From an uncultured Oscillospiraceae bacterium (GTDB taxonomy: Bacteria; Bacillota; Clostridia; Oscillospirales; Oscillospiraceae), in the NCBI GenBank assembly GCA_947581795.1, contig CANPVS010000013.1, forward strand, positions 64 through 64,063: 64,000 bases of DNA, written 5' to 3'. Position numbers and translations under genes: made by a program. The notes below the pieces were generated by a model that did not search any database, was not told the DNA's origin, and worked only from the letters and a program-made list of their open reading frames with translations. Positions 5,662-49,145 of the stretch are shown here, piece after piece. The stretch's first letter is position 1, and each line of letters opens with the position of its first letter.

Positions 5662-6384
5662 ATGAGAAGACCGTCGGAACAACTGAAAAGGGAGAGACTG
5701 CCCTATGCCGCGGCGGTGATCGTGGCTGGAGGCTCGGCCCGGCGCTTCGGCTCCGATAAGCTGATGGAGGACCTGGCTGGGTTCCCGGTGCTCATACGGT
5801 CTGTGCTGGCCTTTGAGCGGTGCGAGGCGATCAACGCCATTGTGGTGGCCGCCCGGGCCGACAGGGTGGACGAGGTGAGAGCGCTCTGCGATACGTACGG
5901 CGTCACCAAGCTCACGGCAGTTGTCGCCGGCGGGGACACCAGAGCCAAGTCCTGCCTCGCTGGAGTAATGGCTGTGCCACCGGAAGCGGAACTCATCGCC
6001 ATCCATGACGGCGCCCGGCCTCTTGTGACGGACGATGTCATCCTGGATGCTCTGTGGACTGCCTATCGCCACACGGCGGCGCTGCCCGCCGTCCCGGTGC
6101 GGGACACGATAAAAGAAGCGGAGGACGGCGTTGTGTCCGCGACGCCGGACAGGTCCCGCCTGTGGGCCGCCCAGACGCCCCAGTGCTTCCAGGCCGACCT
6201 TATCCGGGCCGCCCTGCAGGACGCGGCGGCCAACGCCCCGGAGGTCACGGACGACTGCCTCGCCGTGGAGCGCATCGGCGGGCGGATATATCTTTCTAAG
6301 GGCAGCGAGGAGAACATCAAGATCACCACGCCCCTGGACCTGAAGCTGGCCGGGGCGCTGCTGGCGGAGAGGAGCGGCATATGA
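5662..6384 (+). CDS. ispD: 2-C-methyl-D-erythritol 4-phosphate cytidylyltransferase
   Basis: [17 protein letters not shown] motif, 240 aa, overlaps ispF by 4 nt. Confidence 0.9.
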
Positions 6385-6860
6385 GCATACGCATAGGCCA
6401 CGGATATGACGCCCACCGGCTCACGGAGGGACGGAAGCTCATCCTGGGCGGGGTAGATATACCCTATGAGAAGGGGCTTCTGGGCCACTCGGACGCGGAT
6501 GTGCTGCTCCATGCTTTGGCGGACGCTATCCTGGGCGCCGCGGCGTTAGGGGACATCGGGAAGCTCTTTCCAGACAATGACCCGGCTACGGAGGGAATTG
6601 ACAGCCGCATTATCCTCCGGGCGGCAGTGAGGGCGGCGGCGGACGCGGGGTACGGCGTGGGAAACTGCGACGTGACCGTTATCGCCCAGCGACCGAAGCT
6701 GGCGCCCTATATCGAAGAGATGCGCCAAAACATAGCCGCTGACCTGGGTGTGGATGTTTCCGCTGTCAGCGTGAAGGCCACCACCGAGGAGCGCATGGGC
6801 TTTACCGGCTCCGGGGAGGGCATCAGCTGCCACGCGGTGGCGCTGCTGGCCTCCCGCTGA
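6381..6860 (+). CDS. ispF: 2-C-methyl-D-erythritol 2,4-cyclodiphosphate synthase
   Basis: [10 protein letters not shown]..., [11 protein letters not shown] and DIGKLFPD motifs. 159 aa. Confidence 0.92.
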
Positions 6861-6923
6861 ATTTGAACCAAACAACGACCCTCCCGCATACAATGGTGCG
6901 TAACCAGTGCGGGAGGTCATTTT

Positions 6924-7172
6924 ATGCACTATCTACTGTCATTTCGGAGCCTGACCTATGCCCAGCGGGCGGCCCGTATCCTGGAGCGGGCGGGCATCAC
7001 GGGCACGGTCTCCCGCGTACCGAAGGCCGCGTCTACGAAGGGCTGCGCTTACTGCGTGATCGTGGCGGCGCGGCATAAGGAGCGTTCCCTGTCCATCCTT
7101 GCTAGTGCCGGCGTCGCGCCGGAACGGGTGCTGCTGCGCCATCCAGACGGGACGCTGGAGGCGGGAGCATGA
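6924..7172 (+). CDS. DUF3343-like small protein (putative S/Se carrier-like)
   Basis: 82 aa starting FRSLTYAQRAARILERAGI. Overlaps the downstream cysteine desulfurase-family gene by 4 nt. Confidence 0.6.
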   Translation: MHYLLSFRSLTYAQRAARILERAGITGTVSRVPKAASTKGCAYCVIVAARHKERSLSILASAGVAPERVLLRHPDGTLEAGA

Positions 7173-8287
7173 TCTATCTGGACTGCGCCGCCACCTCCTT
7201 TCAGAAGCCCGCCGCCGTGAACTATGCCGTATCTGAGGCCATGCGGACCCTCTCCAGCCCGGGCCGGGGCGGATATCCAAGCGCCATGGCCGCGGCGGAG
7301 CTGCTGCTGGACTGCCGCCTGGCGCTGGCGGACCTCTTCTGCGTGAAAGACCCGGAACAGGTCGTTTTCACTTCCAGCGCTACCCATGGGCTCAACATCG
7401 CCCTGCGGAGCCTGGTGGGGCCCGGCGACCCGGTGGTCATATCCGGCTATGAGCACAACGCCGTGTGGCGGACGCTGCATGGCATAGGTGCGGACGTGCG
7501 TGTCGCCGCTTCGCCGCTCTTTGCGCCGGAGGCTGCCGTAGAGGCCTTCCGCGCGAAGCTGCCCGGCGCGAAGGCGGCGGTGTGCACCCAGGTGTCAAAT
7601 GTGTTCGGCTATATCATGCCTGTCCGGGAGATCGCCGCCCTGTGCCGGGACGCGGATGTGCCCCTGGTGGTGGATGCCTCCCAGGGGGCGGGCGCTGTGG
7701 GTCTGGACTTTGACGGCCTGGGCTGCGCTTTTGCCGCCATGCCAGGCCACAAGGGGCTTCTTGGTCCGCAGGGGACGGGGGTGCTCCTGTGTCGGGACGG
7801 GAAGATAACGCCCCTCTTCTTTGGCGGGACCGGCTCCGTGAGCGCGGACCCGGCCATGCCGGACTTCCTGCCGGACCGGCTGGAGCCGGGCACCCACAAC
7901 GTGCCGGGCATAGCAGGGCTTCTGGAGGGTGTGAAGTGGCTGCGGCGGAAGACGCCGGCGGCGGTGCTTGCCCATGAGAAGGAGCTGCTGGGGGTCTTTT
8001 CCAAAGCACTTGAAGGAGAGAAACGAGTGAAACTGTTCCTTTCATCCGATCCGGCTTTACAGGCAGGGGTGCTCTCGGTGCAGATGAATGGACTTGACTG
8101 CGAGGAGGCGGCGTCGCGTCTCGCGGAAAGAGGCGTCGCCGTCCGGGCGGGGCTCCACTGCGCGCCCCTGGCCCACGATACGGCCGGGACGCTGGGGGAG
8201 GGAACAGTGCGCTTCAGCTTTTCTCCTTTCAATACGTATCAGGAGGTCATGGCAGCGGTGGAGGCCGTGCGGAAGATACTTAACTGA
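7169..8287 (+). CDS. class V aminotransferase / cysteine desulfurase family protein
   Basis: 372 aa. MIYLDCAATS start, PLP-lysine region (MPGHKGLLGPQGTG) and RAGLHCAP motif. Confidence 0.8.
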   Translation: MIYLDCAATSFQKPAAVNYAVSEAMRTLSSPGRGGYPSAMAAAELLLDCRLALADLFCVKDPEQVVFTSSATHGLNIALRSLVGPGDPVVISGYEHNAVWRTLHGIGADVRVAASPLFAPEAAVEAFRAKLPGAKAAVCTQVSNVFGYIMPVREIAALCRDADVPLVVDASQGAGAVGLDFDGLGCAFAAMPGHKGLLGPQGTGVLLCRDGKITPLFFGGTGSVSADPAMPDFLPDRLEPGTHNVPGIAGLLEGVKWLRRKTPAAVLAHEKELLGVFSKALEGEKRVKLFLSSDPALQAGVLSVQMNGLDCEEAASRLAERGVAVRAGLHCAPLAHDTAGTLGEGTVRFSFSPFNTYQEVMAAVEAVRKILN

Positions 8288-8292
8288 CCTGC

Positions 8293-8324
8293 GGGGCGGA
8301 GCTTTTCCGCCCCTGTCTTTTTTA
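8293..8324 (+). terminator. rho-independent terminator
   Basis: GGGGCGGA / TCCGCCCC stem followed by a T-run, 5 nt after the stop codon. Confidence 0.7.
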
Positions 8325-8358
8325 CCGGAGAAGGACAGGCCAAAACGCAGAAATGAGG

Positions 8359-8387
8359 TTGCCAAAGGTCACAACTTGTTATATAAT
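8359..8387 (+). promoter_or_regulatory. sigma-A-type promoter upstream of cdaA
   Basis: TTGCCA, 17-nt spacer, TATAAT. Confidence 0.55.
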
Positions 8388-8446
8388 ACAAAGTTGACAT
8401 AGAGTGTTCGTCAACCGACAGTCGTACGAATGAATGGTACTGGTCT

Positions 8447-9310
8447 ATGAATGAATTTCTAACCAACCTGCGCGAATCCTTCGGCCTCATCCTGGACATG
8501 GGACCGGCGGACATCGCCGATGTGCTCATCGTGGCGGCGGCGCTGTACGCGGTCATATCCTTCGTGCGCCGGACCAACTCCCTGCGCGTGGCCCAGGGCA
8601 TATTGCTGCTGCTGGTGGCCCTGGGACTGTCCAGCGCTCTCCACCTGACGCTGACCAGCTTCCTGCTGCGGCAGGTCTTTGAGATAGGCGTTCTGGCGGT
8701 GATCGTGCTGTTCCAGCCGGAGATCCGCCGGGCCCTGGAGCGAGTGGGCTCCTACCGGCTGTTCTCCCTGTTCGGCCGGAACGTGGGCGGCCAGGCACTG
8801 GACAAGACCATCATGCAGACCGTGTATGCCTGTGAGGATATGTCCCGGAGCCGCACGGGCGCGCTCATCGTCTTTGAGCGGACCAACCGGCTGAACGAGG
8901 CCATGGCCTCCGGCACCCAGGTGGACGCGCTGGTGTCGTCGGAATTACTCAAAAACGTCTTTTACGACAAGTCGCCTCTCCATGACGGGGCGGTGATCAT
9001 CCGTGACGGACGCCTCGCCGCGGCGGGGTGCATGCTGCCCCTCAGCGAGAACGCCAACTTGAGCCGGGACTTGGGCATGCGCCACCGGGCCGGCATTGGC
9101 ATGAGCGAGCGGTCCGATGCGGTGGTGGTCATCGTCTCCGAGGAGACGGGCGGTATCAGTGTGGCGGAGGACGGCCTTTTGAAACGCCATCTGAGCGCGG
9201 ATACCTTTGAGACGCTGCTGCGCCAGGAACTCCTCCCGGAGGATGACGCCGGAAAGACCAGCTGGCTTGCCAAGCTCAAGGGGCTGAAGGGAGCGGACCA
9301 TGAGAAATGA
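8447..9310 (+). CDS. cdaA: diadenylate cyclase
   Basis: N-terminal TM helices plus a DAC domain (DGAVIIRDGRLAAAGCMLPLS, RHRAGIGMSE). Confidence 0.9.
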   Translation: MNEFLTNLRESFGLILDMGPADIADVLIVAAALYAVISFVRRTNSLRVAQGILLLLVALGLSSALHLTLTSFLLRQVFEIGVLAVIVLFQPEIRRALERVGSYRLFSLFGRNVGGQALDKTIMQTVYACEDMSRSRTGALIVFERTNRLNEAMASGTQVDALVSSELLKNVFYDKSPLHDGAVIIRDGRLAAAGCMLPLSENANLSRDLGMRHRAGIGMSERSDAVVVIVSEETGGISVAEDGLLKRHLSADTFETLLRQELLPEDDAGKTSWLAKLKGLKGADHEK

Positions 9311-10571
9311 CAACACCGCCCGCAGCCGCGGGATACTGGACAGCCGCATCTTCTGGCTCATACTGTGCCTGTGTGCGTCGCTTGTCATCTGGCTATACTA
9401 TACGTCGAACTACGGCATCTCCAAGACCCAGACCTATTACGGCGTGGAGGTGACCTTCACCGGCCAGGACGCCATGCGGGACACCCTGAATTTGGTGGTC
9501 TCCGAGCAGGACACCACCCGCGTGAACGTGACCCTCTCCGGCACCCGCCGGGAGCTGGCGAAGATCACCAGCGACGACATCAAGGCCGTGGTGAACCTGT
9601 CCAACGTGACCATGGCAGGTTATCGGACCATGACCTACTCCCTGAGCTATCCCTCCGGGGTGAACCAGTCCAACATCCGGGAGACCTCCCGGTCGCCCTC
9701 TACCGTAGGCCTGCAGATCAGCAAGCTGGCCACCATGCCCATCGTGGTCTCCGGCCAGTTCGAGGGCACCACCGCCGACGGCTATATGGTGGACGCGGCG
9801 GAGATGACCTTTGACCCCGCTACCGTGACTTTCACCGGCCCTGAGGAGGAACTGAACCAGATCAACAAGGTCCAGGTAGTGGTGGCCCGGGACGAGGTGA
9901 GCGCCTCTTTCAACGCGGTGGGCAACTACGTGCTGCTGGACGCCGACGGCAACATCCTGGAGTTCGAGGACGTCCAGGCGGACGTGGAGACCGTCTCTGT
10001 GAACGTGCCGGTGAGCACGGTGAAGGAAGTGGCCCTGGGCATGGACCTGGTGCCCGGGGGCGGCGCCTCGGCCGACAATGTCATCACCACCATAGAGCCT
10101 GCGGCCATCACAGTCGCCGGCGACGCGGCCACCCTGGACGGGCTGAACATCATCTCCCTGGCTACGGTCCAGCTGGCCAATACCCTGAGCTTTGAGCCCA
10201 CGACCTACAACATCGTTCTGCCCAACGGCGTGGAGTGCCTTACCGGCGAGACCACGGCCACGGTGAGCATGGAATTCGTGGGGCTTAGCTCCAACCTGTT
10301 TGGCGTGACGAACCTGAGCTATGTGAACGCGCCGGCGGGATATGATGTGAGCATCATCGATATGAACAAGGTGGTCACGGTCCGGGCCCCGTCTGACGTC
10401 CTGCCCAGGATCACCGCCAACAATATCCGCGTGGTGGCCGATCTGTCCAGCCTGGCGGATTCCGCGCCCGGGCGGTACCGGGTGTCGGCCAACGTATATG
10501 TGGACGGTTTTGAAAGCGCCGGCGCGGTGGGCAGCTATTCCGTCTATGTGCAGCTGGAGGAAGAAAAATGA
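9300..10571 (+). CDS. cdaR: CdaR-like YbbR-domain protein
   Basis: 423 aa with an N-terminal TM helix and repeated YbbR-like beta modules. Overlaps the cdaA stop. Confidence 0.75.
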   Translation: MRNDNTARSRGILDSRIFWLILCLCASLVIWLYYTSNYGISKTQTYYGVEVTFTGQDAMRDTLNLVVSEQDTTRVNVTLSGTRRELAKITSDDIKAVVNLSNVTMAGYRTMTYSLSYPSGVNQSNIRETSRSPSTVGLQISKLATMPIVVSGQFEGTTADGYMVDAAEMTFDPATVTFTGPEEELNQINKVQVVVARDEVSASFNAVGNYVLLDADGNILEFEDVQADVETVSVNVPVSTVKEVALGMDLVPGGGASADNVITTIEPAAITVAGDAATLDGLNIISLATVQLANTLSFEPTTYNIVLPNGVECLTGETTATVSMEFVGLSSNLFGVTNLSYVNAPAGYDVSIIDMNKVVTVRAPSDVLPRITANNIRVVADLSSLADSAPGRYRVSANVYVDGFESAGAVGSYSVYVQLEEEK

Positions 10572-10966
10572 CCCAGACAGGCATTGTGAAAAAAATACTG
10601 GATAAGGGCATGGCGGATGTGGCCGTGGAGCGTGTCACCGCCTGCAGCCATTGCTCCGGGTGCGGCGAGTGCATTTACGGCAAGGAGATCCACGTGGAAG
10701 CCGAAAATAAGATATTCGCCAAGCCAGGGGAGAGGGTGGTCCTGGAGAGCAAGACCACGACCATCCTGGGCGTGACGCTGCTGGTGTATATGCTGCCGGT
10801 GGCCATGCTGTTCATAGGCTACGCCATCGGGGCGGCGCTCCATCTCGATCAGCAGAAGTGTATCATCGCAAGCGCTGTGGGCATCGCCATAGGCGTCGCT
10901 GTCTCCACGGAACTGGGCAAGCGCTTCAAGAAGATCGATTATTACATCACCGGCTATAAACGCTGA
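10568..10966 (+). CDS. RseC/MucC-family (SoxR-reducing system) membrane protein
   Basis: 132 aa. N-terminal Cys-containing OB-like part (CSHCSGCGEC) followed by two TM helices. Confidence 0.65.
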   Translation: MTQTGIVKKILDKGMADVAVERVTACSHCSGCGECIYGKEIHVEAENKIFAKPGERVVLESKTTTILGVTLLVYMLPVAMLFIGYAIGAALHLDQQKCIIASAVGIAIGVAVSTELGKRFKKIDYYITGYKR

Positions 10967-35520: not shown

Positions 35521-37074
35521 CTAAAAATTCCAATGGATTTCGATTGGAACATCCCTTGTGCCGGGGATTCGTTTGCCAATGGTCACATAGTCGATCAGTG
35601 TGTCCACAATCTCACGGGTAAGGTGTTCTAGGTTGGTGTACTGTTCTATCAACTCACGGCGGTTGTCGCCAGCGGCGATACGTTCTTCTATCTCTGACAA
35701 CTGCTTCTCACCATCAGCAACAACGTGTTCCAGCCTGTCGCGCTCCGTAATAAAGTCCTGGGACATTTCCCTGTAATCGCTCTCGGAGATCAGCCCCTTG
35801 ACTTTATCCAGATAAAGTTCCCGGATACCCTTGGAATACTCCGCTATCTTTTTCTGATAGGTGGCTATGTCTGACTTTAGACTAGATTTTTTCTCCTGAA
35901 GGCTGCCGCAAAACTCAATGTTTCGCTCCAACTCGTCCTTGTCAAGATACTCCGCTGACAGCCTATTCAACTCCGCCAGTACCATCTGTTCCAGTTTGTC
36001 AACGGCGATGAACGCCCCCTCGCAGGCATCTCTTGACACATGGCGGGTGCAGCATTGCAGATAGTGGCGGCCTCGGCTTTTGGACGAGCGCATGACATAG
36101 CCGCAATTAGCACAACGGGCTTTTCGGGCGAATAGACCTAGTTCCCCGCTGTCAAAGGGTTTGGCACGCTGGTCGATCAACGCTTGGACTCTATCCCATA
36201 GGTCGCGGTCAATGATAGGCTCATGGGTGCCTTTCACGATAATCCATTGATCTTTTGGCCTTGGCCTGCAAATCTTGGTCTTATAGGACACACTGGCGTA
36301 TTTGCCCTGTACCATATTACCAATATAGATTTCATTTGACAGCATATCCGCGATGGCGAAGTATTTCCAGAGAGTACTGTTCTTCGTGGCTGGCTGCATA
36401 TAGCGCAGACCGTGCAGGCGCTTGTACTCCGTGGGATTCGGAATGCCTCGGTCGTTGAGCATCCGTGCGATGGCGGTCTTGCCATAGCCCTGGGCAAAGA
36501 GAGTGAATACCTCCCGGACAACGGCGGCGGCTTCCTCGTCGATGATAAGATGGCCTTTCTGTTCAGGGTCTTTCAAATAGCCATAGAGAGCAAAGGCCCC
36601 AATGTGAAAGCCGTTTTCCCGGCGGCTGGTCAGTACGCTGCGGATATTCTCAGACATATCCTCCAAATACCACTCGTTCACCAGCCCATTGATTTGGCGG
36701 GATTTTTTGTTGCCCTTGTTGGCGGTATCGGCGTTGTCCACGATGCTGATAAAGCGGATGCCCCAGAGCGGGAAGAGACCGTGTATGTACTTCTCCACCA
36801 ACTCCAGCTCGCGGGTGAAGCGGGATTGAGTCTTACAGAGAACAATGTCAAATTTCCGCTGCTCCGCGTCCTGCAGGAGCCGATTGAACTCCGGCCGCCG
36901 TCGGTCTGACCCCGTGTAGTCGTCGTCACTGTAGATATTGAAAAGCTCCCACCCCTGTTCCATTACATATTGCAGCAGCATGGCTTTCTGATTCTGAATG
37001 CTGTTGCTGTCGTCGGTCGCGTGCTGCTTGTTTCGGTCTTCTTCGCTCAATCTGCAATAGATTGCTACCTTCAT
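35521..37074 (-). CDS. large serine recombinase (resolvase domain + recombinase/zinc-ribbon + DUF4368-like coiled-coil; TndX/TnpX-like)
   Basis: MKVAIYCRLSEED catalytic Ser region, SRFTRE motif and Zn ribbon CANCGY..C..H. GAAAGGAG RBS upstream. The ORF-track start at 37155 is rejected. Confidence 0.9.
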   Translation of the reverse strand: MKVAIYCRLSEEDRNKQHATDDSNSIQNQKAMLLQYVMEQGWELFNIYSDDDYTGSDRRRPEFNRLLQDAEQRKFDIVLCKTQSRFTRELELVEKYIHGLFPLWGIRFISIVDNADTANKGNKKSRQINGLVNEWYLEDMSENIRSVLTSRRENGFHIGAFALYGYLKDPEQKGHLIIDEEAAAVVREVFTLFAQGYGKTAIARMLNDRGIPNPTEYKRLHGLRYMQPATKNSTLWKYFAIADMLSNEIYIGNMVQGKYASVSYKTKICRPRPKDQWIIVKGTHEPIIDRDLWDRVQALIDQRAKPFDSGELGLFARKARCANCGYVMRSSKSRGRHYLQCCTRHVSRDACEGAFIAVDKLEQMVLAELNRLSAEYLDKDELERNIEFCGSLQEKKSSLKSDIATYQKKIAEYSKGIRELYLDKVKGLISESDYREMSQDFITERDRLEHVVADGEKQLSEIEERIAAGDNRRELIEQYTNLEHLTREIVDTLIDYVTIGKRIPGTRDVPIEIHWNF

Positions 37075-37098
37075 AGTCCATACTCCTTTCGGAGATAG

Positions 37099-37146
37099 GA
37101 CAAGCCGTTTCCGGCAGGTAGTATACCACGCCGGAAACGGCTTGTC
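37099..37146. repeat. 17-bp perfect inverted repeat (stem-loop) just upstream of the recombinase RBS
   Basis: GACAAGCCGTTTCCGGC, 14-nt loop, GCCGGAAACGGCTTGTC. Confidence 0.85.
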
Positions 37147-37160
37147 TATTTCCAATGTAA

Positions 37161-39129: not shown

Positions 39130-39148
39130 ATATTAAGGGGTGATCAAG

Positions 39149-39793
39149 GTGACACAGATCAAGAGCAAAGAGCGGGTGCAACGGCATGGCGAGGTATTCA
39201 CGGCACAGCACGAGGTAACCGCTATGCTAGATTTGGTGCGGAAAGAGGCCAAGAGGATAGACAGCACCTTTTTGGAGCCTGCCTGCGGCAACGGTGCCTT
39301 TCTTGCTGAAATCCTCCGGCGCAAGCTGAACACGGTGTTTCGCATGGCTGGCATGAACGATGCGGACTGTGAGTATTGGGCGACTAGGGCCTTCTCTACC
39401 ATCTACGGCATAGACATCATGGCGGACAATATCGCAGAGGCCCGTGAACGCCTGTTCAATGACTTCTTTGCCCGGTTTCTCAACCGATACAAGCACCAGC
39501 CCACGCACATCTGCATGGACAGCATCCGCTTCATATTGAGCCAGAATATCCAGCAGGCCGATTCCCTGACGTGCAAGACGGGTGGGGGAACAGACCTCAT
39601 AATGACCTCATGGGTCTTTGACGAGAACGACGGTCTGACCATCGGTCTGTTCCGCTATGCCGATATGGTCCGCTCCGGGTGCAGCTGCAAGCCTCTCCGG
39701 GTCTTGCCGAAAATCCCGTATATGATGCTCCCGGCTATCTTTCGGAGTGATGAATGCTGGACATGGCAGACTAGTCATGGTAGAATAATATAG
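39149..39793 (+). CDS. DNA N6-adenine-methyltransferase-like protein lacking the NPPY catalytic motif and TRD (paralog A)
   Basis: HGEVFTA (motif X-like), LEPACGNGAFL (motif I), IYGIDI (motif II), QQADSL (motif III); DLIMTSWVF sits where FDxIxGNPPY is expected. GTG start after AAGGGG (alternative GTG at 39140). Confidence 0.7.
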   Translation: MTQIKSKERVQRHGEVFTAQHEVTAMLDLVRKEAKRIDSTFLEPACGNGAFLAEILRRKLNTVFRMAGMNDADCEYWATRAFSTIYGIDIMADNIAEARERLFNDFFARFLNRYKHQPTHICMDSIRFILSQNIQQADSLTCKTGGGTDLIMTSWVFDENDGLTIGLFRYADMVRSGCSCKPLRVLPKIPYMMLPAIFRSDECWTWQTSHGRII

Positions 39794-39828: not shown

Positions 39829-40491
39829 TTGGAGCAGCAGATCAAGTCAAAGCAGCGGGTGGCCGATCACGGCGAGGTGTTCACAGCCGAACGAGAAGTG
39901 AACGCTATGTTGGACATGGTTAAACAGGAAACGGAGCGAATCGACTCCCGCTTCCTGGAACCCGCCTGTGGTGAGGGAGCTTTCCTGGCCGAAGTGCTGC
40001 GACGGAAGCTGGCTGTCGTGAAGCAAAAGTACGGACGAAACCCATCAGACTATGAACTCTACGCTTTGATTGCCGTGACGAGCATTTACGGCGTGGATAT
40101 AATGGAGGACAACACCGAGAACTGCCGCAAGCGGCTATTCAAGATATGGAATAAAGAATACACCGCCGTTATGAAGAAAGAGGCGAACGACCGCTGCCGT
40201 GAGGTCGTAAAGTTTATCTTCAAGAAGAACATCCTTTGCGGCGATGCCCTAAAAATGGAGCAGCAGGACGGAACCCCGATCCTATTCGCAGAGTGGAGCC
40301 AAGTATCCGGCAGCCTTATCAAGAGAAGGGACTTTGAGCTGAACGAACTTCTGAAAGGCCATGAACGGCAGATGGACATGGATATGCTCCTCGGCGGCTG
40401 GGAGTACGACGAGGAAATAGACGCATATATCCCGGCACCTATAAAGGAATACCCACCGACTGATTATAGGAGGTTGGATGATTATGAATGA
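39829..40491 (+). CDS. DNA N6-adenine-methyltransferase-like protein lacking the NPPY catalytic motif and TRD (paralog B)
   Basis: HGEVFTA, LEPACGEGAFL, IYGVDI and ILCGDAL, then PILFAEWSQV with no NPPY. TTG start. The N-terminal approx. 60 aa are clearly paralogous to A. Confidence 0.7.
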   Translation: MEQQIKSKQRVADHGEVFTAEREVNAMLDMVKQETERIDSRFLEPACGEGAFLAEVLRRKLAVVKQKYGRNPSDYELYALIAVTSIYGVDIMEDNTENCRKRLFKIWNKEYTAVMKKEANDRCREVVKFIFKKNILCGDALKMEQQDGTPILFAEWSQVSGSLIKRRDFELNELLKGHERQMDMDMLLGGWEYDEEIDAYIPAPIKEYPPTDYRRLDDYE

Positions 40492-42103
40492 TGATTTTTT
40501 CGATGCTGTTTATAACCCGGATGTTCTGTCCTGCATCGCAAACTTGAGCAGCGACGAGGTATTCACGCCGCCCGGTATTGCAAATGATGTTCTGGATATG
40601 CTGCCCCAGGAGCTTTTCCAAAGCCGGGACACCACCTTCCTTGACCCCGGCTCCAAGAGCGGTATCTTTTTGCGGGAGATCGCAAAGCGGCTCCTCAGAG
40701 CGCAGATTCCAGGCTATGAACGGATCGCCCGAGAAATACGCCAGAAACAGCGTGAAGGGGGCACACTGGACCCGGACGAGGAATCCTTTTTGGAAGTCCT
40801 ACAGGAGAACATAGACCACATCTTTCATAACCAGCTTTTCGGTATTGCTGTTACTGAACTTACCAGCCTTCTTTCCAGGCGGAGCGTCTACTGTTCCAAA
40901 TTCCCAAACAGTGAGTTCTCCATTTCTCATTTCGACTCCGCGGAGGGAAATATCCGTTTCCGGCGCACCCAGCACATTTGGGATAAGAACGGAAGTTGTA
41001 AGTATTGTGGCGCATCCAAAGAATTATATGACCGAGGGGATAAGCTGGAAACCCATGCGTATGAGTTCATCCACACGAAAAAGCCGGAGGATATTTTCTC
41101 GATGAAGTTTGATGTTATTATCAGTAATCCGCCATACGCCCAGGACACAGCAGGGGCTGGCCGTCAAGCCAAACCCCTTTATAATTTGTTTGTTGAACAA
41201 GCGAAAAAACTTCATCCACGGTATCTGTGTATGATTATTCCGTCTCGCTGGTTTTCTGGCGGCATGGGTCTGGATGATTTCCGTAAATCCATGATTTCGG
41301 ATGCTCATATCACAAAGATGGTTGACTTCACCAATTCAAAAGATTGTTTTCCAGGGGTCAGCGTAAGCGGCGGCGTGTCATATTTTCTGTGGGAACGGGA
41401 CAAAACATCTGAATGTGAGTTTACTAATATAACGAATGGTGAAACAAATGTGATGGTACGCCCGTTAAATGAGTTCTCGACCCTCGTTAGATACAACAGC
41501 GCTGTTTCAATCATCCACAAGGTCAACGCTCTGACAAAGGAGAAACTTGAAACTATTATTAGTTCTCTTATGCCCTATGGGCTGTCCACCAGCTATCGCG
41601 GCAGAGCACTAAAAACAGAGAGGAGCCAACTCACGTTGTATGCCAGTAATGGTGTGACATATATAAATCGGAACGAGATCACAAAGGGACTTGAAACAGT
41701 CGATAAATATAAAATCCTTGTGAGTAAGACAAGCGCGGAGCACGCGGGAGAACCTGGGAACGATGGTAAATTCAAGGTTATCCCTTCGTCCATGAAGGTC
41801 ATTGGCCCTGGGGATGTGTGTACCCATTCATATTTCATTATTGGAAATTGGGACAGCGAATCTCCCGCTAAAAACGCCCTGTCTTACATGAGGACAAAGT
41901 TTGTCAGATTCTTGATGCTACTTTGTATCAGCGGCTTTGGTCTATCCAAAATTGTCTTTCCATTTGTACCAATGCAAGACTTCTCTAAGCCTTGGACAGA
42001 CAAAGAATTGTATGCGAAGTATGGCCTGACGGATAAAGAAATCGAGTTCATCGAATCTATGATTAAGCCTATGGACGGCGCAGATGAAGATGTTGAGCCG
42101 TAA
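40478..42103 (+). CDS. Eco57I-family (gamma-class) N6-adenine DNA methyltransferase with C-terminal putative target-recognition region
   Basis: DEVFTPP (motif X), FLDPGSKSGIFL (motif I) and VIISNPPYAQ (motif IV). 541 aa. Overlaps paralog B by 14 nt. Confidence 0.85.
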   Translation: MIMNDDFFDAVYNPDVLSCIANLSSDEVFTPPGIANDVLDMLPQELFQSRDTTFLDPGSKSGIFLREIAKRLLRAQIPGYERIAREIRQKQREGGTLDPDEESFLEVLQENIDHIFHNQLFGIAVTELTSLLSRRSVYCSKFPNSEFSISHFDSAEGNIRFRRTQHIWDKNGSCKYCGASKELYDRGDKLETHAYEFIHTKKPEDIFSMKFDVIISNPPYAQDTAGAGRQAKPLYNLFVEQAKKLHPRYLCMIIPSRWFSGGMGLDDFRKSMISDAHITKMVDFTNSKDCFPGVSVSGGVSYFLWERDKTSECEFTNITNGETNVMVRPLNEFSTLVRYNSAVSIIHKVNALTKEKLETIISSLMPYGLSTSYRGRALKTERSQLTLYASNGVTYINRNEITKGLETVDKYKILVSKTSAEHAGEPGNDGKFKVIPSSMKVIGPGDVCTHSYFIIGNWDSESPAKNALSYMRTKFVRFLMLLCISGFGLSKIVFPFVPMQDFSKPWTDKELYAKYGLTDKEIEFIESMIKPMDGADEDVEP

Positions 42104-42650
42104 CGAGGAATACTACGACCGTTACACCGAACTTCAGGACCTGGTTCTGCGGGCCTATATTGACGTGCTGTCCCTTGAAGAAATAACCTCTGCTGTAGGG
42201 ACAAACCAAGACAGCCATATTGAAATGCTGGATGTCAGCATCAACGCCTTGGGCCATATCTGTGAACTGCTGAAGGCAGATATGGCGCTTACCATCTGGA
42301 AGATTTACTATGAATCGTATGGCTGGGCGAATAACATTGGAAATCTGAACCGTGATTTCTTCGCGCCTCGCGGTGAGCGCCGAGAAACAAAACTCCCAAA
42401 GGACCTTAAAACATACAAGGCACCCATTCAAACCCTACGAAAAGAATACCTTGCTCATAACAGCGCCGAGAAAAGCGGAACGAGCATATCCGTGCAGGCG
42501 TTAAGGGCTGTTCTGGATGCCATAAAGGATTTGCTGAACGGATTGTGCGATCCCACGCTGGACAGCCGCGTGGAACCTGTCACAGAGTCCGCTTTGTACA
42601 CGCTGGATATAAACGTAAAACTCGGCCTTGGTACAGTCATCAGAAAGTGA
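42084..42650 (+). CDS. hypothetical helical protein, HEPN-like (AbiU2-type) candidate
   Basis: 188 aa. RKEYLAH fits the HEPN Rx4-6H motif near the expected position. Overlaps the MTase stop by 20 nt. Confidence 0.45.
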   Translation: MKMLSRNEEYYDRYTELQDLVLRAYIDVLSLEEITSAVGTNQDSHIEMLDVSINALGHICELLKADMALTIWKIYYESYGWANNIGNLNRDFFAPRGERRETKLPKDLKTYKAPIQTLRKEYLAHNSAEKSGTSISVQALRAVLDAIKDLLNGLCDPTLDSRVEPVTESALYTLDINVKLGLGTVIRK

Positions 42651-42686
42651 TGTGCTTTTCTGCCAGGCAAAATGGAGGGTCATCCT

Positions 42687-45674
42687 ATGCCCAACACTGA
42701 TTTCTTCCCGTCGCGTCCAAAAACTTTTCCCCAAGTGTATGCCTATACCATTCCCGGTCTGAAGACGCATGAGGGATATATCAAAGTAGGCTACACGGAG
42801 CGTGAGAACGCGAGTGAGCGTATTCGAGAACAGCTGCATACGGCTGGCATAAAGCACGACCTTCTGTTCATCGAATCTGCTATGCGGACAGATGGCAGCA
42901 GCTTTACCGACTATGATGTTCACAGAGTGCTTCGCAGAAAGGGGTATCCCCAGCTGAACGAGGGGGAGGACAGAAACGAATGGTTCAAGTGTAGTGCGGA
43001 CGCTGTTCGCGCTGCGATCATAGCCGTTCGGGATAGGACCGACAACGCAGAGGAGCGGTCTCAGTCTTTTCCGATGCGCCCGGAACAGGCCCGCGCCGTG
43101 CAGGTGACAACTGACTATTTTCGGAGGGTCAGCCAGGACGAGCCGGGTAGGCGGCCCAAATTCCTTTGGAACGCGAAGATGCGCTTTGGCAAGACTTTTG
43201 CCTCGTATGAGCTGGCAAAGGCCATGGGACTGAAACGGATATTGGTGCTGACATTCAAGCCTGCGGTAGAATCCGCCTGGCGGGATGATCTTATGACCCA
43301 TGTGGATTTTGAAGGCTGGCAGTTCGTATCCAATAAGGACGCGCACAACAACAATCTGAACATCGACGAGCAGTATGCCAAGACGGACAAAAGCAGACCC
43401 ATCGTGGTGTTTGGTTCCTTTCAGGACCTACTCGGAACGAATGAAAATGGCGGTATCAAGGCCAAGAACGAGTTCATCCATACGAACAACTGGGATTTAG
43501 TCATCTTCGATGAATACCACTTCGGCGCATGGCGTGAAAACGCTGCCAAGCTGTTTGAACGCCCGGACGAAGAAAAAGACGTGGACTTCGATGCCGAGGA
43601 ATACAGCAAAGAAGAAGCAGGAAACGCCTTCAACGAGACGTTCATTGAGATCACAACGAAATACTATCTGTTTCTCTCGGGCACGCCGTTCCGTGCCCTC
43701 AACTCCGGCGAGTTCATAGAGGAGCAGATATACAACTGGACGTACTCTGACGAGCAGCGGGCAAAGGAACAATGGCCGTACCTTGCTGATTTCCCCGAAT
43801 ACCATGCCCAACCCAGCGACACAAACCCCTATGCCGCCCTTCCTCGCATGGTGATGCTCACATACCGTATCCCCGATGACATCCGCAGAGTAGCGCAGCA
43901 GGGAGAGTTTAACGAGTTCGACCTAAATGAGTTCTTCGCGGCTAAACCTGCAGAGAAGGGCAAGCCAGAAACATCCCGATTCGTGCATGAGAATGAAGTC
44001 CAGAAATGGCTTGATCTTATCAGAGGAGCGCATCTCCCTTCATCTATAGACGAGTTGAAGCTGGACGCTGGAAAACGCCCGCCCATGCCGTACTCTGACA
44101 GCAACTTGCGCGGGATATTGAGCCATACGCTGTGGTTCCTGCCGAATGTGGCAAGCTGCTTTGCCATGTTTAATCTGCTGATGCAGCGTCAAAACGGCTT
44201 CTATAATAACTATTACACTATCAAGGTGTGCGCTGGGTCAAAGGCTGGCATAGGCTTGGATGCGCTCGCTCCCATACGACAGGCGATGGGGAACCCGCTG
44301 GAAACACAGACCATCACCCTGTCCTGCGGCAAGCTGACGACGGGCGTAACGGTAAAGCCCTGGTCTGGCGTGTTCATGCTGCGCAACCTGAAAAGCCCGG
44401 AAACTTACTTCCAGACAGCTTTCCGTGTCCAGTCCCCATGGACTATACAGGACAATGAGGGCAAGACGCAAATCATCAAGAGGGAGTGCTATGTTTTTGA
44501 CTTTGCTCTGGACAGAGCACTCCGACAAATCTCCGATTATGCCCGCAGTCTGGATGTAAAGGGAGATAAAAGCCCGGAAGAAAAGGTGGCCGAGTTCATT
44601 CAATTTCTGCCCGTTTTGGCGTACAACGGCAGTTCTATGCAGCAAGTGGACGCACAGGCCATTTTGGACATCGCTATGTCCGGCACCTCTGCTACACTTC
44701 TTGCGCGGCGGTGGCAATCCGCTCTGCTGGTGAATGTCGATAATACGACGCTGCAAAGACTTCTTGCCAGCCAGGAGGCCATGGATGCTCTCAGCAGGAT
44801 CGAAGATTTCAGAAATTTGAATCAGGACATCGAGATCATCATCAACAGGTCTGAAAGCGTAAAGAAGGCAAAAACAAAGGGAGAAAAGATGACTCCCCAA
44901 GAGAAGGAGAAGGTAAAGGAGGATGAAAACGAGTTCAAGAGCCGCCGGAGAGACATCCAGAAAAAGCTGATTAAGTTTGCCAGCCGTATCCCGCTGTTTA
45001 TGTATCTGACCGACTACCGTGAGCGGACGCTAAAAGACGTAATCACGCAAATTGAGCCGGGGCTGTTTATGAAGGTCACGGGGCTGGATACCAAAGACTT
45101 TGAGCTTCTGTGCTCCCTGGGGGTGTTCAACGCTGGGCTGATGACCGATTCTATCTTCAAATTCAGAAGATACGAGGATGCGTCCCTGTCCTATGCTGGC
45201 ATCGACAAGAACGCGGATAAGGCTGTCGGCGGCTGGGACACTGTTCTCCGCAGAGAGGAATATGAGAGGCTGTATTATACGCAGCAGTCCTCTATGTCTG
45301 CAGGAGTGGTGGAGGAATACGCGGAAGATGCAGAACAGACCCCAGCCGAGACTGTAAAGCCCATAGAGGTGAAAAAGCCAAAAGAAACAGCACCCAAAGC
45401 CACTGTGCCAAAAGTTGCAGTTGCGCCGAGCCGTACACAAGCCCCCACTCCTGCACCTGCAAAAGTGCCGTTAAAACCGTTTTTCAGCAAAGCACAGGCT
45501 TACACGCCACCGAATGTCAAAGTTGGCGATGATGTGAACCACAAGAAGTTTGGAAAAGGTGCTGTTGTTGCTTTAGACCCGGTAGCAAAATACATCCGCG
45601 TTCAGTTTTCAGAGGGCGAGAAGTCGTTTATATTCCCGGATGCGTTCAAAAACGGTTTTTTGAGCATTAAATGA
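42687..45674 (+). CDS. GIY-YIG/T5orf172-like nuclease domain fused to SF2 (type III Res-like) helicase with long C-terminal extension
   Basis: N-terminus is VYAYTIPG..GYIKVGYTER...NEWF. Helicase motifs are MRFGKTF (I), FDEYH (II) and QTAFRVQSP (VI). C-terminus is HKKFGKGAVV (UvrD/PcrA-tail-like). GGAGGG RBS (alternative ATG at 42672). Confidence 0.8.
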   Translation: MPNTDFFPSRPKTFPQVYAYTIPGLKTHEGYIKVGYTERENASERIREQLHTAGIKHDLLFIESAMRTDGSSFTDYDVHRVLRRKGYPQLNEGEDRNEWFKCSADAVRAAIIAVRDRTDNAEERSQSFPMRPEQARAVQVTTDYFRRVSQDEPGRRPKFLWNAKMRFGKTFASYELAKAMGLKRILVLTFKPAVESAWRDDLMTHVDFEGWQFVSNKDAHNNNLNIDEQYAKTDKSRPIVVFGSFQDLLGTNENGGIKAKNEFIHTNNWDLVIFDEYHFGAWRENAAKLFERPDEEKDVDFDAEEYSKEEAGNAFNETFIEITTKYYLFLSGTPFRALNSGEFIEEQIYNWTYSDEQRAKEQWPYLADFPEYHAQPSDTNPYAALPRMVMLTYRIPDDIRRVAQQGEFNEFDLNEFFAAKPAEKGKPETSRFVHENEVQKWLDLIRGAHLPSSIDELKLDAGKRPPMPYSDSNLRGILSHTLWFLPNVASCFAMFNLLMQRQNGFYNNYYTIKVCAGSKAGIGLDALAPIRQAMGNPLETQTITLSCGKLTTGVTVKPWSGVFMLRNLKSPETYFQTAFRVQSPWTIQDNEGKTQIIKRECYVFDFALDRALRQISDYARSLDVKGDKSPEEKVAEFIQFLPVLAYNGSSMQQVDAQAILDIAMSGTSATLLARRWQSALLVNVDNTTLQRLLASQEAMDALSRIEDFRNLNQDIEIIINRSESVKKAKTKGEKMTPQEKEKVKEDENEFKSRRRDIQKKLIKFASRIPLFMYLTDYRERTLKDVITQIEPGLFMKVTGLDTKDFELLCSLGVFNAGLMTDSIFKFRRYEDASLSYAGIDKNADKAVGGWDTVLRREEYERLYYTQQSSMSAGVVEEYAEDAEQTPAETVKPIEVKKPKETAPKATVPKVAVAPSRTQAPTPAPAKVPLKPFFSKAQAYTPPNVKVGDDVNHKKFGKGAVVALDPVAKYIRVQFSEGEKSFIFPDAFKNGFLSIK

Positions 45675-45686
45675 GAGGAGATCAGA

Positions 45687-45869
45687 ATGGCAAGACAGAA
45701 AAAGGATGGGCATTATATTAACTGCTATCTTGATCGGAACCTCTATAACCGACTCTGCTATTATGCGGAGGAGAAAGGACAGACAAAGACCCTCGCCATT
45801 GAGAGAATCCTAAAGGAGCACTTCGATAAAAGCGGCGTTCCAGCAGAGGTTGATACTCCAAAGGATTGA
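45687..45869 (+). CDS. ribbon-helix-helix (Arc/CopG-like) protein
   Basis: 60 aa with beta-strand YINCYL followed by two helices (NLYNRLCYYAEEKGQTKTLAIERILKEHF). GAGGAG RBS. Confidence 0.6.
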   Translation: MARQKKDGHYINCYLDRNLYNRLCYYAEEKGQTKTLAIERILKEHFDKSGVPAEVDTPKD

Positions 45870-46660: not shown

Positions 46661-46694
46661 GATGTGAGGGACGGCTCAGGCCGTCCCTCACATC
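46661..46694. terminator. 15-bp perfect hairpin after the SprT-like gene
   Basis: GATGTGAGGGACGGC-tcag-GCCGTCCCTCACATC. Overlaps the stop codon. Confidence 0.65.
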
Positions 46695-47337
46695 ATACCT
46701 CTATCATCTGGCGCATACAGTCGCCGCACAGGATGTTGACCTTTTTCGTGGCCCTCACGCTCTGACCGCAGACGGGACAGGCCAGTTTGCGGGTGCTGCT
46801 GGGGCGTTTGCCGCCCAGGAGCGGTTCCCCGGCCTGGGCGGTGCCGCCTGCGCCAAGCCGTATCATGGGCGGTAGAGTGGAGCGGCCTATTTTTATCTCA
46901 GACCAGCCTTTTGAAAGTGCATACTCAACGAGATTGTCGCCGGGCTTGGTGTTCCAGCCGTATTGACCCTGACGAAAGCAGGTAAGGCCGTGGGCCTCGG
47001 CAATCGCTTTGAACAGCCCATTGTGGTACTTGCCGCCTCGGCTCACCTCTTTGATGCCGTGCTCCCGGCAATAGATATGCACCATCTCATGGAGCATGGT
47101 GTCGATGGTTTCCTCTATGGGGTAGGAAAGCACCTCGGCGGCGATGTTCAGCTCATAGGTGCTGTCCTCTTGCCTGCGCCAGACCTTGGCGACGGAACTG
47201 TGGCCGTAGGTGCCGGGTTTGCTCTGCACAGTGATAATGGGCGTGGGCAGCTCGCTGGCGAAGAAATCGGTGTTGAGGCAGTTAAAAATGTGCTCCAGCT
47301 GACTGACGGCGCGGGACATCTTGGTGGTGGGCTTCAT
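46693..47337 (-). CDS. SprT-like zinc metalloprotease domain protein with C-terminal zinc ribbon
   Basis: HEMVH motif and CPVCG...CGDC. GGGAGG RBS before the ATG at 47337. Confidence 0.75.
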   Translation of the reverse strand: MKPTTKMSRAVSQLEHIFNCLNTDFFASELPTPIITVQSKPGTYGHSSVAKVWRRQEDSTYELNIAAEVLSYPIEETIDTMLHEMVHIYCREHGIKEVSRGGKYHNGLFKAIAEAHGLTCFRQGQYGWNTKPGDNLVEYALSKGWSEIKIGRSTLPPMIRLGAGGTAQAGEPLLGGKRPSSTRKLACPVCGQSVRATKKVNILCGDCMRQMIEV

Positions 47338-47455
47338 AGTGGTGTACCTCCCATAATGTAATATGTGTGATAGCAAAGCGGCTCGCTCGCTTTGCTTGCT
47401 TACAGGAGGCACACCCGCCCGCACGGTCAAGACTGGCCCACAGGGCCACTCGCGC

Positions 47456-47499
47456 AAAAAATTTTCCTCCCAGCCTCACGGCCAGGAGGAAAAATTTTT
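47456..47499. terminator. A/T-flanked hairpin after the coupling-protein gene
   Basis: AAAAAATTTTCCTCC, loop, GGAGGAAAAATTTTT. Confidence 0.6.
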
Positions 47500-47540: not shown

Positions 47541-49145
47541 TCACACCTCCACGAATGGTATATGTACCAGGGATACACGCTCCGGGTGCTGCTTATCGTA
47601 ATAGATCGCCGTCAAGGGACGCAGTTCCTTGATGGTGTCGGGAGAGACCTTGTACTCATGTACCAGCTTCTTGGTGCCCGCCGCGTCCGGGTCGAGGAGC
47701 CTGCCAGTGGATTTGCGGGTAGTCTCCACCGTGAGCTTTGTGCCGATGATGTTCGCCATCGTCTCCGCGTCGGCAGCGGCGTTGAGCTGCAGAACAGCGT
47801 ACTGTCCGCAATTTTCCATGACCCTTTCTGCGAACGATTCTGATACAGCGGACAGGTCCGCGATGGATTGGGTGGCGACGATGATCTGATAGCCGTAGCT
47901 CCGGGCTTGGGCGAACAGGGGCATAAGCTGCTCCGTGGCGTAGGCTCCCAGCTCGTCCAGGATGACACGCTTCCGGGTGCTCATGTTGCGCTCTTGGGAG
48001 ATAACATGGCGGACGTCCGCGATGAACAGCTTGCCCACCGCCTGGGTGTAGTCCGTGTACCTGAAGCTATCCAAATCCACGAAGAACACAGCACCGTCTT
48101 TCTGCGCTGTTGCTGCGCTCACATAGTCCCCGGTGCCGTCCCCGAATAAGTCGCTGCCATCGCCATACAGCAGGTTTTGGTAGCGGCTCCGGGACAGAGC
48201 CGCTTCCTCTGCCACGTCTGACAGGGCAAGATACCCACGCGCCTGTTCCGCTGTCAATACGCCGTCCTTCCTCAGCTGGCCTATCAGAGAAGAAAACTCT
48301 TTCCATGCGTAGAAGTCACACACCGAGGCAAGAGACAGCGGTATATCCGCTGCCTGAAGCACCTCGCACAGCGCCTTTAGCCAGGTCGCCGTGCAAGCCT
48401 TGTAATGGGGTTCGGTAAACTCACTGATGCTCACCAGCGCGTCCGACAGCTCTGTAGGCGTCATTTCCGCCAGGGGGTTGTACTTCCGGCGGTCATGCTC
48501 GCGGGGATTGAGCGATACGACCAGCATCTTGCGTCCATACTTGGCGGCCAAGGCTTTGGTCGCGTTGAGCAGGCTCCGGCTGTCATCTGTGCCGTTCTTG
48601 CCGCTGAGAACATACAGAGGCTCGCCGCGTCGGATGGAATCCTCTATGTGATGCAGCAGGAGCGTTGTCTTGCCGCTGCCCGTAGTCCCGGCGACAAACG
48701 CATGGGTTCGGTTGCCCGTGTCCACTTGCTGGGTGTGGGTGAACTGCCGCAAGGATTTCTTTCGCTCATGCCGCAGCAGTGCGTCATCTGCACTCTCGCC
48801 GCCCACCCAGGCGATAGCGATGACGGTAGCGTCAACGAAGAGAAAACGAGTGGGCGCGGGATACACCAGCCATTTGTAGGCTGTTTCGGGGAAAGTACCC
48901 ATCCAAAAGCCACCTAGGCCATTACCAAGGACAAGCGATACCAAAATAACAGCGACCACGTCCGAAGCACCAATGAGCAGGAGCCATAACACGATTTGTC
49001 TCTTTGCTGCATCGCACTTCCAGCGCATATAGGCATAGATGACTATTAGTGCCAAAAAGTAGGCAGGGGAGAAAAATAGGGACGCGACAATGAAGTACGG
49101 AAGACACATCACAAGGCGCTGGCGGAAATCCAAAGTATTGTTCAT
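47541..49145 (-). CDS. type IV coupling protein (TraG/TraD/VirD4-like ATPase)
   Basis: N-terminal TM helices, Walker A GTTGSGKT and Walker B VILDELG. 534 aa. Confidence 0.8.
   Translation of the reverse strand: MNNTLDFRQRLVMCLPYFIVASLFFSPAYFLALIVIYAYMRWKCDAAKRQIVLWLLLIGASDVVAVILVSLVLGNGLGGFWMGTFPETAYKWLVYPAPTRFLFVDATVIAIAWVGGESADDALLRHERKKSLRQFTHTQQVDTGNRTHAFVAGTTGSGKTTLLLHHIEDSIRRGEPLYVLSGKNGTDDSRSLLNATKALAAKYGRKMLVVSLNPREHDRRKYNPLAEMTPTELSDALVSISEFTEPHYKACTATWLKALCEVLQAADIPLSLASVCDFYAWKEFSSLIGQLRKDGVLTAEQARGYLALSDVAEEAALSRSRYQNLLYGDGSDLFGDGTGDYVSAATAQKDGAVFFVDLDSFRYTDYTQAVGKLFIADVRHVISQERNMSTRKRVILDELGAYATEQLMPLFAQARSYGYQIIVATQSIADLSAVSESFAERVMENCGQYAVLQLNAAADAETMANIIGTKLTVETTRKSTGRLLDPDAAGTKKLVHEYKVSPDTIKELRPLTAIYYDKQHPERVSLVHIPFVEV

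Follow-up and report, generated by a model that had tools for sequence, protein, structure and literature searches.

A 64,000-nucleotide stretch of DNA from an uncultured Oscillospiraceae bacterium (GenBank assembly GCA_947581795.1, contig CANPVS010000013.1, positions 64 to 64,063; hereafter the window) carries the gene for a 995-residue protein in which a T5orf172 domain of the GIY-YIG clan, a superfamily 2 (SF2) helicase core, and a C-terminal tail of the PcrA/UvrD type follow one another in a single polypeptide (Table 1). The gene closes a short methylase operon on a mobile element, and we read its product, with moderate confidence in the account as a whole and its mechanism, as the nuclease and motor subunit of a three-component, ATP-dependent defense module resembling restriction-modification (R-M) systems. 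The open reading frame (ORF) spans 42672..45674 (+), and translation begins at the ATG at 42687, preceded at a distance of 6-7 nt by the Shine-Dalgarno sequence GGAGGG. A preliminary description of this DNA, made from the letters alone, had chosen the same start, and both the Shine-Dalgarno spacing and a public gene call of the same protein (P0001), which also gives 995 aa, agree with it. The three-part architecture proposed there (T5orf172, SF2, UvrD-like tail) was likewise recovered by Pfam, PADLOC, and a profile of the tail. Neither PADLOC nor NCBIfam offered a model dedicated to the 995-aa nuclease-helicase.

Table 1. Positions in the window of the nuclease-helicase, its domains, and the neighboring features discussed in the text
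Feature	Position	Strand	Extent, evidence, and remarks
Nuclease-helicase, whole coding sequence	42687..45674	+	T5orf172, SF2 helicase, helical domain, linker, Tudor domain; 995 aa plus stop
T5orf172 (GIY-YIG clan) putative nuclease domain	42729..43040	+	Residues ~15-118; Pfam, conservation, AlphaFold2 (AF2) model, Foldseek to viral models
SF2 DExH ATPase/translocase core	43068..44651	+	Residues ~128-655; Pfam ResIII, PADLOC PDLC03626, invariant motifs, Foldseek (low template modeling (TM) score)
Conserved C-terminal helical domain	44652..45290	+	Residues ~656-868; AF2 helices, conserved positions, relatives aligning to ~860
Disordered Pro/Lys/Ala/Glu-rich linker	45291..45506	+	Residues ~869-940; predicted local distance difference test (pLDDT) 26-37; length varies between loci
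PcrA/UvrD-type Tudor domain	45507..45671	+	55 aa, residues ~941-995; family tail profile, PF21196, conservation, AF2
NA, second diverged half-methylase paralogue	39140..39793	+	48% identical to NB
NB, half-methylase, partner upstream of MC	39829..40491	+	Motifs X and I, no NPPY; synteny 57/59
MC, Eco57I-family N6-adenine methylase (NPPY)	40478..42103	+	Pfam Eco57I E=2e-37, PADLOC, motifs, synteny 59/59
X188, 188-aa gene between methylase and helicase	42084..42650	+	Faint HEPN (AbiU2) match, R-x5-H motif
60-aa ORF just downstream of helicase	45687..45869	+	Recurs beside module in some loci
Large serine recombinase	35521-37155	-	Left side of island
SprT-like gene	46693-47457	-	Right side of island
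Type IV coupling protein	47541-49145	-	Right side of island

The nuclease-type domain and the motor

Pfam assigns residues 22-117 to T5orf172 (PF10544; GIY-YIG clan) with 32.1 bits against a cut-off of 20, as it does the corresponding region of the relatives, and the domain also matches MUG113 with 28.5 bits (cut-off 22.3). Both scores exceed the curated thresholds and bear out the T5orf172/MUG113 assignment made in the preliminary description; membership of T5orf172 is solid. Among 35 diverse relatives Y18, K33, and D75 are invariant, G35, T37, R45, L82, and E98 are at least 90% conserved, and the column of H79, a residue invariant in the close clade, is mostly His. Y18, R45, and E98 are all invariant in the close clade, and across 35-48 diverse relatives Y18 stays invariant while R45 and E98 remain at least 90% conserved; judged from these columns, the predicted catalytic Tyr/Arg/Glu set of GIY-YIG enzymes is kept in the family. 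The AF2 model of residues 1-125 is confident (pLDDT 92.7), with a beta-beta-alpha-beta-alpha-beta-beta-alpha order of secondary structure, and a Foldseek search of predicted viral structures with this model returned T5orf172, MUG113, and Bro-type proteins (E~1e-4, TM 0.5-0.6).

The motor begins a few residues further on. Pfam ResIII, a profile of the ATPase N-lobe, matches residues 133-291 with 26.8 bits (cut-off 22.5), and residues 129-670 align with positions 152-679 of the 1359-position PADLOC model REase_MTase_IIG (PDLC03626; E=4e-35). Motif I (G168-K169-T170), motif II (D275-E276-x-H278), motif III (S331-G332-T333), and motif VI (Q576/R580) of the helicase core are invariant in 40 close and 48 distant relatives, so that the motifs I, II, and VI quoted in the preliminary description are present and characteristic of the family. 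Searches of the PDB sequences with the whole protein (phmmer) and with two full-length family profiles (hmmsearch) gave no usable helicase relative, only weak RapA and HsdR matches around motif II. The core is also the poor part of the full-length AF2 model (mean pLDDT 58.7), and because of this the best Foldseek matches, to Snf2/RIG-I/ZorD/SauUSI-type SF2 ATPases at TM ~0.2, show only an SF2 Snf2/RIG-I-like ATPase.

What had been called a long coiled, charged region behind the core comprises two different parts. Residues ~656-868 form a conserved helical domain and not a mere spacer: the domain is found family-wide, including in tail-less members that end there, it has conserved positions at F771, Y773, E779, F794, F826, and E830, and AF2 models it as helices with pLDDT ~66-82 over residues 690-820. 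We infer that it is a candidate coupler to the methylase module. The second part, residues ~869-940, is a disordered, low-complexity linker.

The C-terminal Tudor domain and its place in the family

The likeness of the C-terminus to the tail of UvrD and PcrA, noticed in the preliminary description, reflects real homology. Tails cut from 33 non-redundant relatives were aligned and gave the consensus PxVxxGxxVxHxKFGxGTVxxxDKAxKHIRVxFxxGEKxFxFPDAFKxGFL. Against 177,635 PDB sequences, the profile of this alignment found two chains of the UvrD C-terminal domain from E. coli (7egs_B and 6yi2_A, both at E=4e-7), T. thermophilus UvrD (7egt_B) at 1e-3, and further chains of UvrD, PcrA, and ATP-dependent DNA helicases more weakly. 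PF21196 (PcrA_UvrD_tudor) is matched by 32 of the 33 tails (best 4.9e-6), and 23 also match CarD_TRCF_RID; the tail of the window protein taken alone scores 17.4-22.4 bits against PF21196, under the cut-off of 23.9 (the 17.4-bit match lies at residues 951-968). Only the N-terminal domain is predicted better than the tail in the full-length AF2 model. Strands at 949-952, 956-963, 969-974, 977-982, and 992-994 and a short helix (pLDDT 86-92) make up a Tudor/SH3-like barrel of five strands that ends the protein and is preceded by a linker of ~70 residues with pLDDT ~30.

The conserved residues of the tail are of particular interest because mutational work exists for PcrA, in which H681, W684, K712, and L714 are needed for the pull-down of RNA polymerase (Sanders et al., PMC5397179). 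These four align with H952, F955, K979, and F981 of the window protein; the first three are invariant in the family tails, together with G956, G958, and F974, and F981 is at least 90% conserved. Like the PcrA/UvrD Tudor domains of known structure (5DMA, 6YI2, 7EGS), the tail combines the motif G-x-x-V-x-H-x-K-F-G-x-G-x-V ... G-x-K-x-[FL] with a small five-stranded barrel, conserved RNA polymerase-binding residues, and a position at the very C-terminus behind a disordered linker. It differs from them in sitting on an SF2 motor of restriction type rather than on a superfamily 1 repair helicase, and in its last strand and helix.

The architecture is not rare, and the family as a whole is very large. 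A word-based protein search gave at least 8000 candidates with E <= 0.001, an exhaustive search gave 4199 clusters among 50%-identity representatives, and relatives occur in at least 588 GTDB species. The best 120 listed relatives all share the architecture, with about 970 aa and at least 64% identity over at least 87% of the query. Of the representatives at 35-50% identity, most have 800-870 aa and align only to residues ~13-860; the Tudor tail is confined to the close clade. Since most relatives are without it, the tail is an acquired, clade-specific accessory that stands outside the core mechanism. Among the 80 loci kept for comparison, 56 encode the tail, always at the very end of the protein and after a linker of ~40-160 aa. 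The tailed loci belong to Clostridia, Bacteroidales, Fibrobacter, and Coriobacteriia of gut and rumen, among others, and the tail-less versions come more from nongut taxa (Methylomarinum, Flavobacteriales, Opitutaceae, a Zetaproteobacteria bin), with some from gut or rumen metagenome-assembled genomes. Ruminococcus flavefaciens ATCC 19208 (L012) and Collinsella tanakaei YIT 12063 (L086) are carriers available in culture. Relatives in sister clades carry other modules in the tail's place, namely RAMA in P0131 and a tandem GYF_2 in P0183. Four further relatives (P0123, P0128, P0154, P0174) have C-terminal extensions of 130-330 aa without a Pfam match.

The module travels on plasmids, on elements resembling integrative and conjugative or integrative and mobilizable elements (ICE/IME-like), and on one phage. 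The phage is the human-gut Caudoviricetes phage NatCom_35866 (locus L009; PV036449.1; Ca. Heliusvirales), which holds the same three-gene module at 5694-10925; its helicase is tailed and 65% identical to that of the window, and a second DNA methyltransferase gene lies a few kilobases away. On the mobilizable plasmid pCRULAC2 of Corynebacterium crudilactis (locus L008), positions 5983-8541 encode a tail-less T5orf172-helicase, 53% identical (tblastn), with no methylase beside it. This solitary gene, which adjoins the resistance genes aph(3'')-Ib/aph(6)-Id as well as insertion sequence (IS) and Tn3 elements, is probably an orphaned remnant.

The operon and the element that carries it

The nuclease-helicase is the last gene of a conserved operon that runs NB, MC, a variable insert, and nuclease-helicase. 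In the 59 loci with enough upstream sequence for such counts, MC lies directly upstream on the same strand without exception, and NB precedes it in 57. MC matches positions 1010-1359 of PDLC03626, the model to which the helicase aligns much nearer its start; as the two proteins match different parts of one fused model, the operon is a split form of a helicase-methylase fusion that is already known. The C-terminal region of MC is probably its target recognition domain (TRD). NA and NB each have methylase motifs X and I (EPACGxGAFL) and no NPPY. We rejected the idea that they are a frameshifted or decayed methylase, given that other loci preserve both paralogues and their separation from MC. Nearly every operon includes NB, whereas close orthologues of NA (67% identity) occur only in L001-L004. 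Motif I of MC itself is a variant, FLDPGSKSG in the window against a family consensus of FLDPACKSG, a Lys replacing the Gly of the canonical DPACGSG; it is NB that carries the canonical EPACGxG. The MC of the window also has an insertion of ~25 residues (about residues 79-107) that is missing from most relatives.

The MC-helicase junction is a hotspot for insertions that takes up other genes of defense type. Extra genes stand there in 16 of the 59 loci, and 43 have no insert. The slot holds an ApeA-type HEPN gene, an AAA_21 ATPase with DUF4276, DUF2971, RhuM, or an IS (loci including L023, L025, L045, and L085), and in L001 a weak RES-like gene. The window's own insert, X188, has RKEYLAH as its R-x5-H motif, its match to HEPN_AbiU2 being faint; L053 has a homologue in this slot, and L059 has one on the downstream side of the helicase. 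In L005 GmrSD adjoins the module. The 60-aa ORF begins 13 nt past the helicase stop, recurs right after the helicase gene in L001-L004 and L024, stands on the upstream side of the module in L043, and may encode a small regulator.

All of these genes lie in a low-GC stretch (47-57% GC, about 35.3-50.5 kb) within a backbone of 62% GC. A MatE transporter gene and the large serine recombinase mark its left side; on its right side, the coupling protein and the SprT-like gene are followed by the spore-coat genes CotJA/CotJB. The stretch is an integrative mobile element of ~15 kb, and its host is a spore-forming member of the Bacillota with high GC content. A gene resembling sigma-70 region 4 is also on the island.

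A proposed restriction motor and its possible docking

The preliminary description had named the nuclease-helicase as the probable effector, and this is still the best reading, for the protein has the sole clear nuclease-type domain in a conserved methylase-helicase operon. We propose the following course of events. NB and MC would methylate adenine at an asymmetric site and so mark self DNA. An unmethylated site would engage the nuclease-helicase, probably via the conserved helical domain, and ATP-driven translocation on double-stranded DNA would end in cutting by the T5orf172 domain upon a stall or collision, as in Type I and Type ISP enzymes. The restriction reading is supported by the defense context of the module, that is, the GmrSD neighbor, the defense-type inserts, carriage by a phage, and the low-GC island with its recombinase and type IV coupling protein. 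Inferred from domains and context, the role as a restriction motor is well supported.

The set of components is a known one. In 2009 Morgan et al. pointed out that nuclease-less homologues of MmeI, B. subtilis YeeA among them, in every case have a helicase (YeeB) and a protein with a GIY-YIG motif (YeeC) as flanking neighbors, and they proposed a helicase-dependent type of R-M for such clusters (PMC2731913). YeeA, later DnmA, is an N6-methyladenine methylase that acts as a regulator (PMC9973331). The window module and the YeeA/DnmA-YeeB-YeeC cluster each unite a gamma-class N6-adenine methylase of MmeI/Eco57I type with a TRD, an SF2 helicase, and a putative T5orf172/GIY-YIG nuclease in a tight operon on horizontally acquired DNA, and the predicted logic is the same, with specificity from the methylase and cutting by helicase and nuclease. 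Compared by domain set, they differ in that nuclease and helicase are fused in the window, with T5orf172 at the N-terminus, whereas YeeC is a separate protein with a C-terminal T5orf172; in the order of genes, with the methylase before the fusion; and in the extra half-methylase NB and the Tudor tail of the window clade. The module has the set of components predicted in 2009 in a different arrangement: a nuclease-helicase fusion, an extra half-methylase, and, in one clade, a Tudor tail.

Other relatives are less close in arrangement. The helicase-Eco57I fusions of Lactococcus/Enterococcus plasmids, represented by the REBASE-derived model PDLC03626 ('Type IIG'), have a homologous helicase core (~29-33% identity), a homologous methylase part, and the same small half-methylase gene upstream; unlike the window system, they join helicase and methylase in one protein, begin with DUF4145 instead of T5orf172, and lack the Tudor tail. 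Type ISP enzymes (LlaGI, LlaBIII) similarly combine an SF2 motor with a gamma-class adenine methylase/TRD and a nuclease at the N-terminus and likely share cutting after translocation, but they are single polypeptides with an Mrr-type PD-(D/E)XK nuclease. Membership of Type ISP was rejected on these grounds, the methylase being a separate gene here and the N-terminal domain a T5orf172 domain of nuclease type; searches of PDB sequences gave no match to solved Type ISP chains. Type III R-M, in which a Res subunit with a C-terminal PD-(D/E)XK nuclease acts with a beta-class Mod methylase, was also rejected: only the ATPase N-lobe matches ResIII, the methylase is of Eco57I/MmeI type and not a beta-class Mod, and no C-terminal nuclease domain was found.

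How the tail would contribute is the most speculative step. We suggest, tentatively, that on its flexible leash of ~70 aa it serves as an adaptor for docking to proteins, through the surface that the PcrA/UvrD tail also employs. The PcrA/UvrD tail recognizes the TGE beta-hairpin of RNA polymerase beta or UvrB (PMC8318588), and the likeliest target here would be the beta-hairpin 'helicase interaction motif' of the host's RNA polymerase beta or of UvrB. The PcrA partner motif [VIL]DxxTGE[VIL][VILT] and relaxed forms of it were sought by regular expression and occur in no ORF of the window, which holds neither rpoB nor uvrB; because the motif is absent from the operon proteins and from the whole window, a partner within the system that uses the canonical hairpin is unlikely. 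Judged by its residues, the tail makes tethering to RNA polymerase plausible, and a docked tail would bring the motor preferentially to DNA under transcription or regulate its collisions with the polymerase. There is one precedent for Tudor domains on defense helicases. The RapA-like Swi2/Snf2 helicases of Type 3 BREX and BREX-related systems (PMC12839542) likewise place a Tudor domain of the RNA polymerase-associated kind on an SF2 motor in a methylase-associated defense system, although in them the Tudor domain is N-terminal and of RapA type and accompanies a restriction endonuclease or HKD nuclease, in contrast to the C-terminal PcrA/UvrD-type Tudor domain and T5orf172 of the window protein. 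In the literature on PF21196 and on Tudor domains with restriction helicases, we did not find a PcrA/UvrD-type tail on a restriction-type motor described.

Several observations speak against docking on the polymerase. Most family members do without any tail, the last third of the tail domain (FPDAFKxGFL) is family-specific and departs from UvrD/PcrA, and W709 of UvrD, a residue of its aromatic cage, has no conserved aromatic counterpart in the tails according to our ungapped extension of the profile alignment. The UvrD tail also binds single- and double-stranded DNA, if weakly (PMC7585439). The architecture could accordingly be as described and the tail have nothing to do with RNA polymerase, acting as a weak, nonspecific DNA clamp or as a dock for the system's own methylase, for UvrB, or for a phage protein. 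The occurrence of RAMA, a domain associated with DNA or modified bases, or of GYF_2 at the same C-terminal position in sister clades fits such a view, as it suggests a slot for interchangeable reader or adaptor modules. Yet the invariant residues of the tail are the ones that PcrA needs for binding RNA polymerase, the operon's own proteins lack the canonical partner motif, and the UvrD tail binds the RNA polymerase core with an affinity of 77 nM and DNA far more weakly, at ~2-4 uM (PMC7585439); we regard a tail unconnected with the polymerase as doubtful. The fullest version of polymerase docking, in which the tail brings the restriction motor to the host RNA polymerase through the beta hairpin used by PcrA/UvrD and thereby makes restriction transcription-coupled in this clade, is in our estimate unlikely. 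If it were true, the enzyme might reach invading DNA as soon as the host polymerase transcribes it, and a collision between motor and polymerase might stand in for the converging second enzyme required by Type ISP-like motors, in which case even DNA with a single site could be cut.

A broader doubt concerns restriction itself. No restriction and no phage defense was seen with DnmA-YeeB-YeeC of B. subtilis (PMC9973331), and the helicase of the window is too divergent for PDB searches to place it beside any solved R-M motor by sequence. The module might instead be a methylase-centered epigenetic or selfish cassette, or might serve the establishment or anti-defense needs of its element, with the helicase-nuclease used for DNA processing; the regulatory role of DnmA and the carriage of the module by mobile elements and a phage would suit this. 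We consider it rather improbable, however, in view of the strict conservation of the ATPase and nuclease-type residues across thousands of sequences from many phyla, the invariant synteny with the methylase, and the defense-type neighbors and inserts. The B. subtilis system is moreover a different one, unfused and described as missing C-terminal stretches (PMC9973331), and homologues in Vibrio crassostreae are reported, as cited in the same paper, to alter phage sensitivity.

The last point concerns cutting by the T5orf172 domain. The Tyr/Arg/Glu set stands, and the second Tyr of the YIG motif does not, its column (Y31 in the window) varying among Y/L/W/F/R across relatives while K33 is invariant instead. 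Foldseek of the confident N-terminal model against the PDB gave no match with an E-value under 0.3 and no solved GIY-YIG nuclease, within the limited sensitivity of the method for small domains; the N-terminal family profile had no match among PDB sequences, and hhalign gave none to E. coli UvrC(1-110). The proposed link to solved GIY-YIG nucleases draws on the Pfam clan assignment and the residue pattern. The T5orf172 branch seems to have no solved representative that Foldseek recognizes. That the domain is a noncatalytic DNA-binding or recognition domain, as database descriptions of the Pfam family historically had it, and that the protein acts without cutting, for instance by translocase-driven displacement or via an inserted effector such as X188 (effector-like genes being frequent next door), is nevertheless very improbable when Y18, R45, and E98 are invariant or nearly so, when the T5orf172 protein Odn of ICP1 is an active nuclease for which the equivalent, conserved Glu is essential (PMC8263062), and when the loci without an inserted gene have no other effector available.

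Restriction by a nuclease-helicase that depends on an MmeI/Eco57I-type methylase is our preferred reading of the module, and it bears on a kind of system that was predicted in 2009, is very common, and is still almost uncharacterized. A restriction motor physically linked to RNA polymerase, if shown, would be a new coupling of defense to transcription. The exchangeable modules at the C-terminus (Tudor, RAMA, GYF), together with the insert slot filled with defense genes, make the family a good model for how defense systems acquire accessories. Members of the clade are abundant among gut bacteria of humans and animals, in several phyla, as well as on the phages and mobile elements of these bacteria, and they probably help to shape gene flow there.

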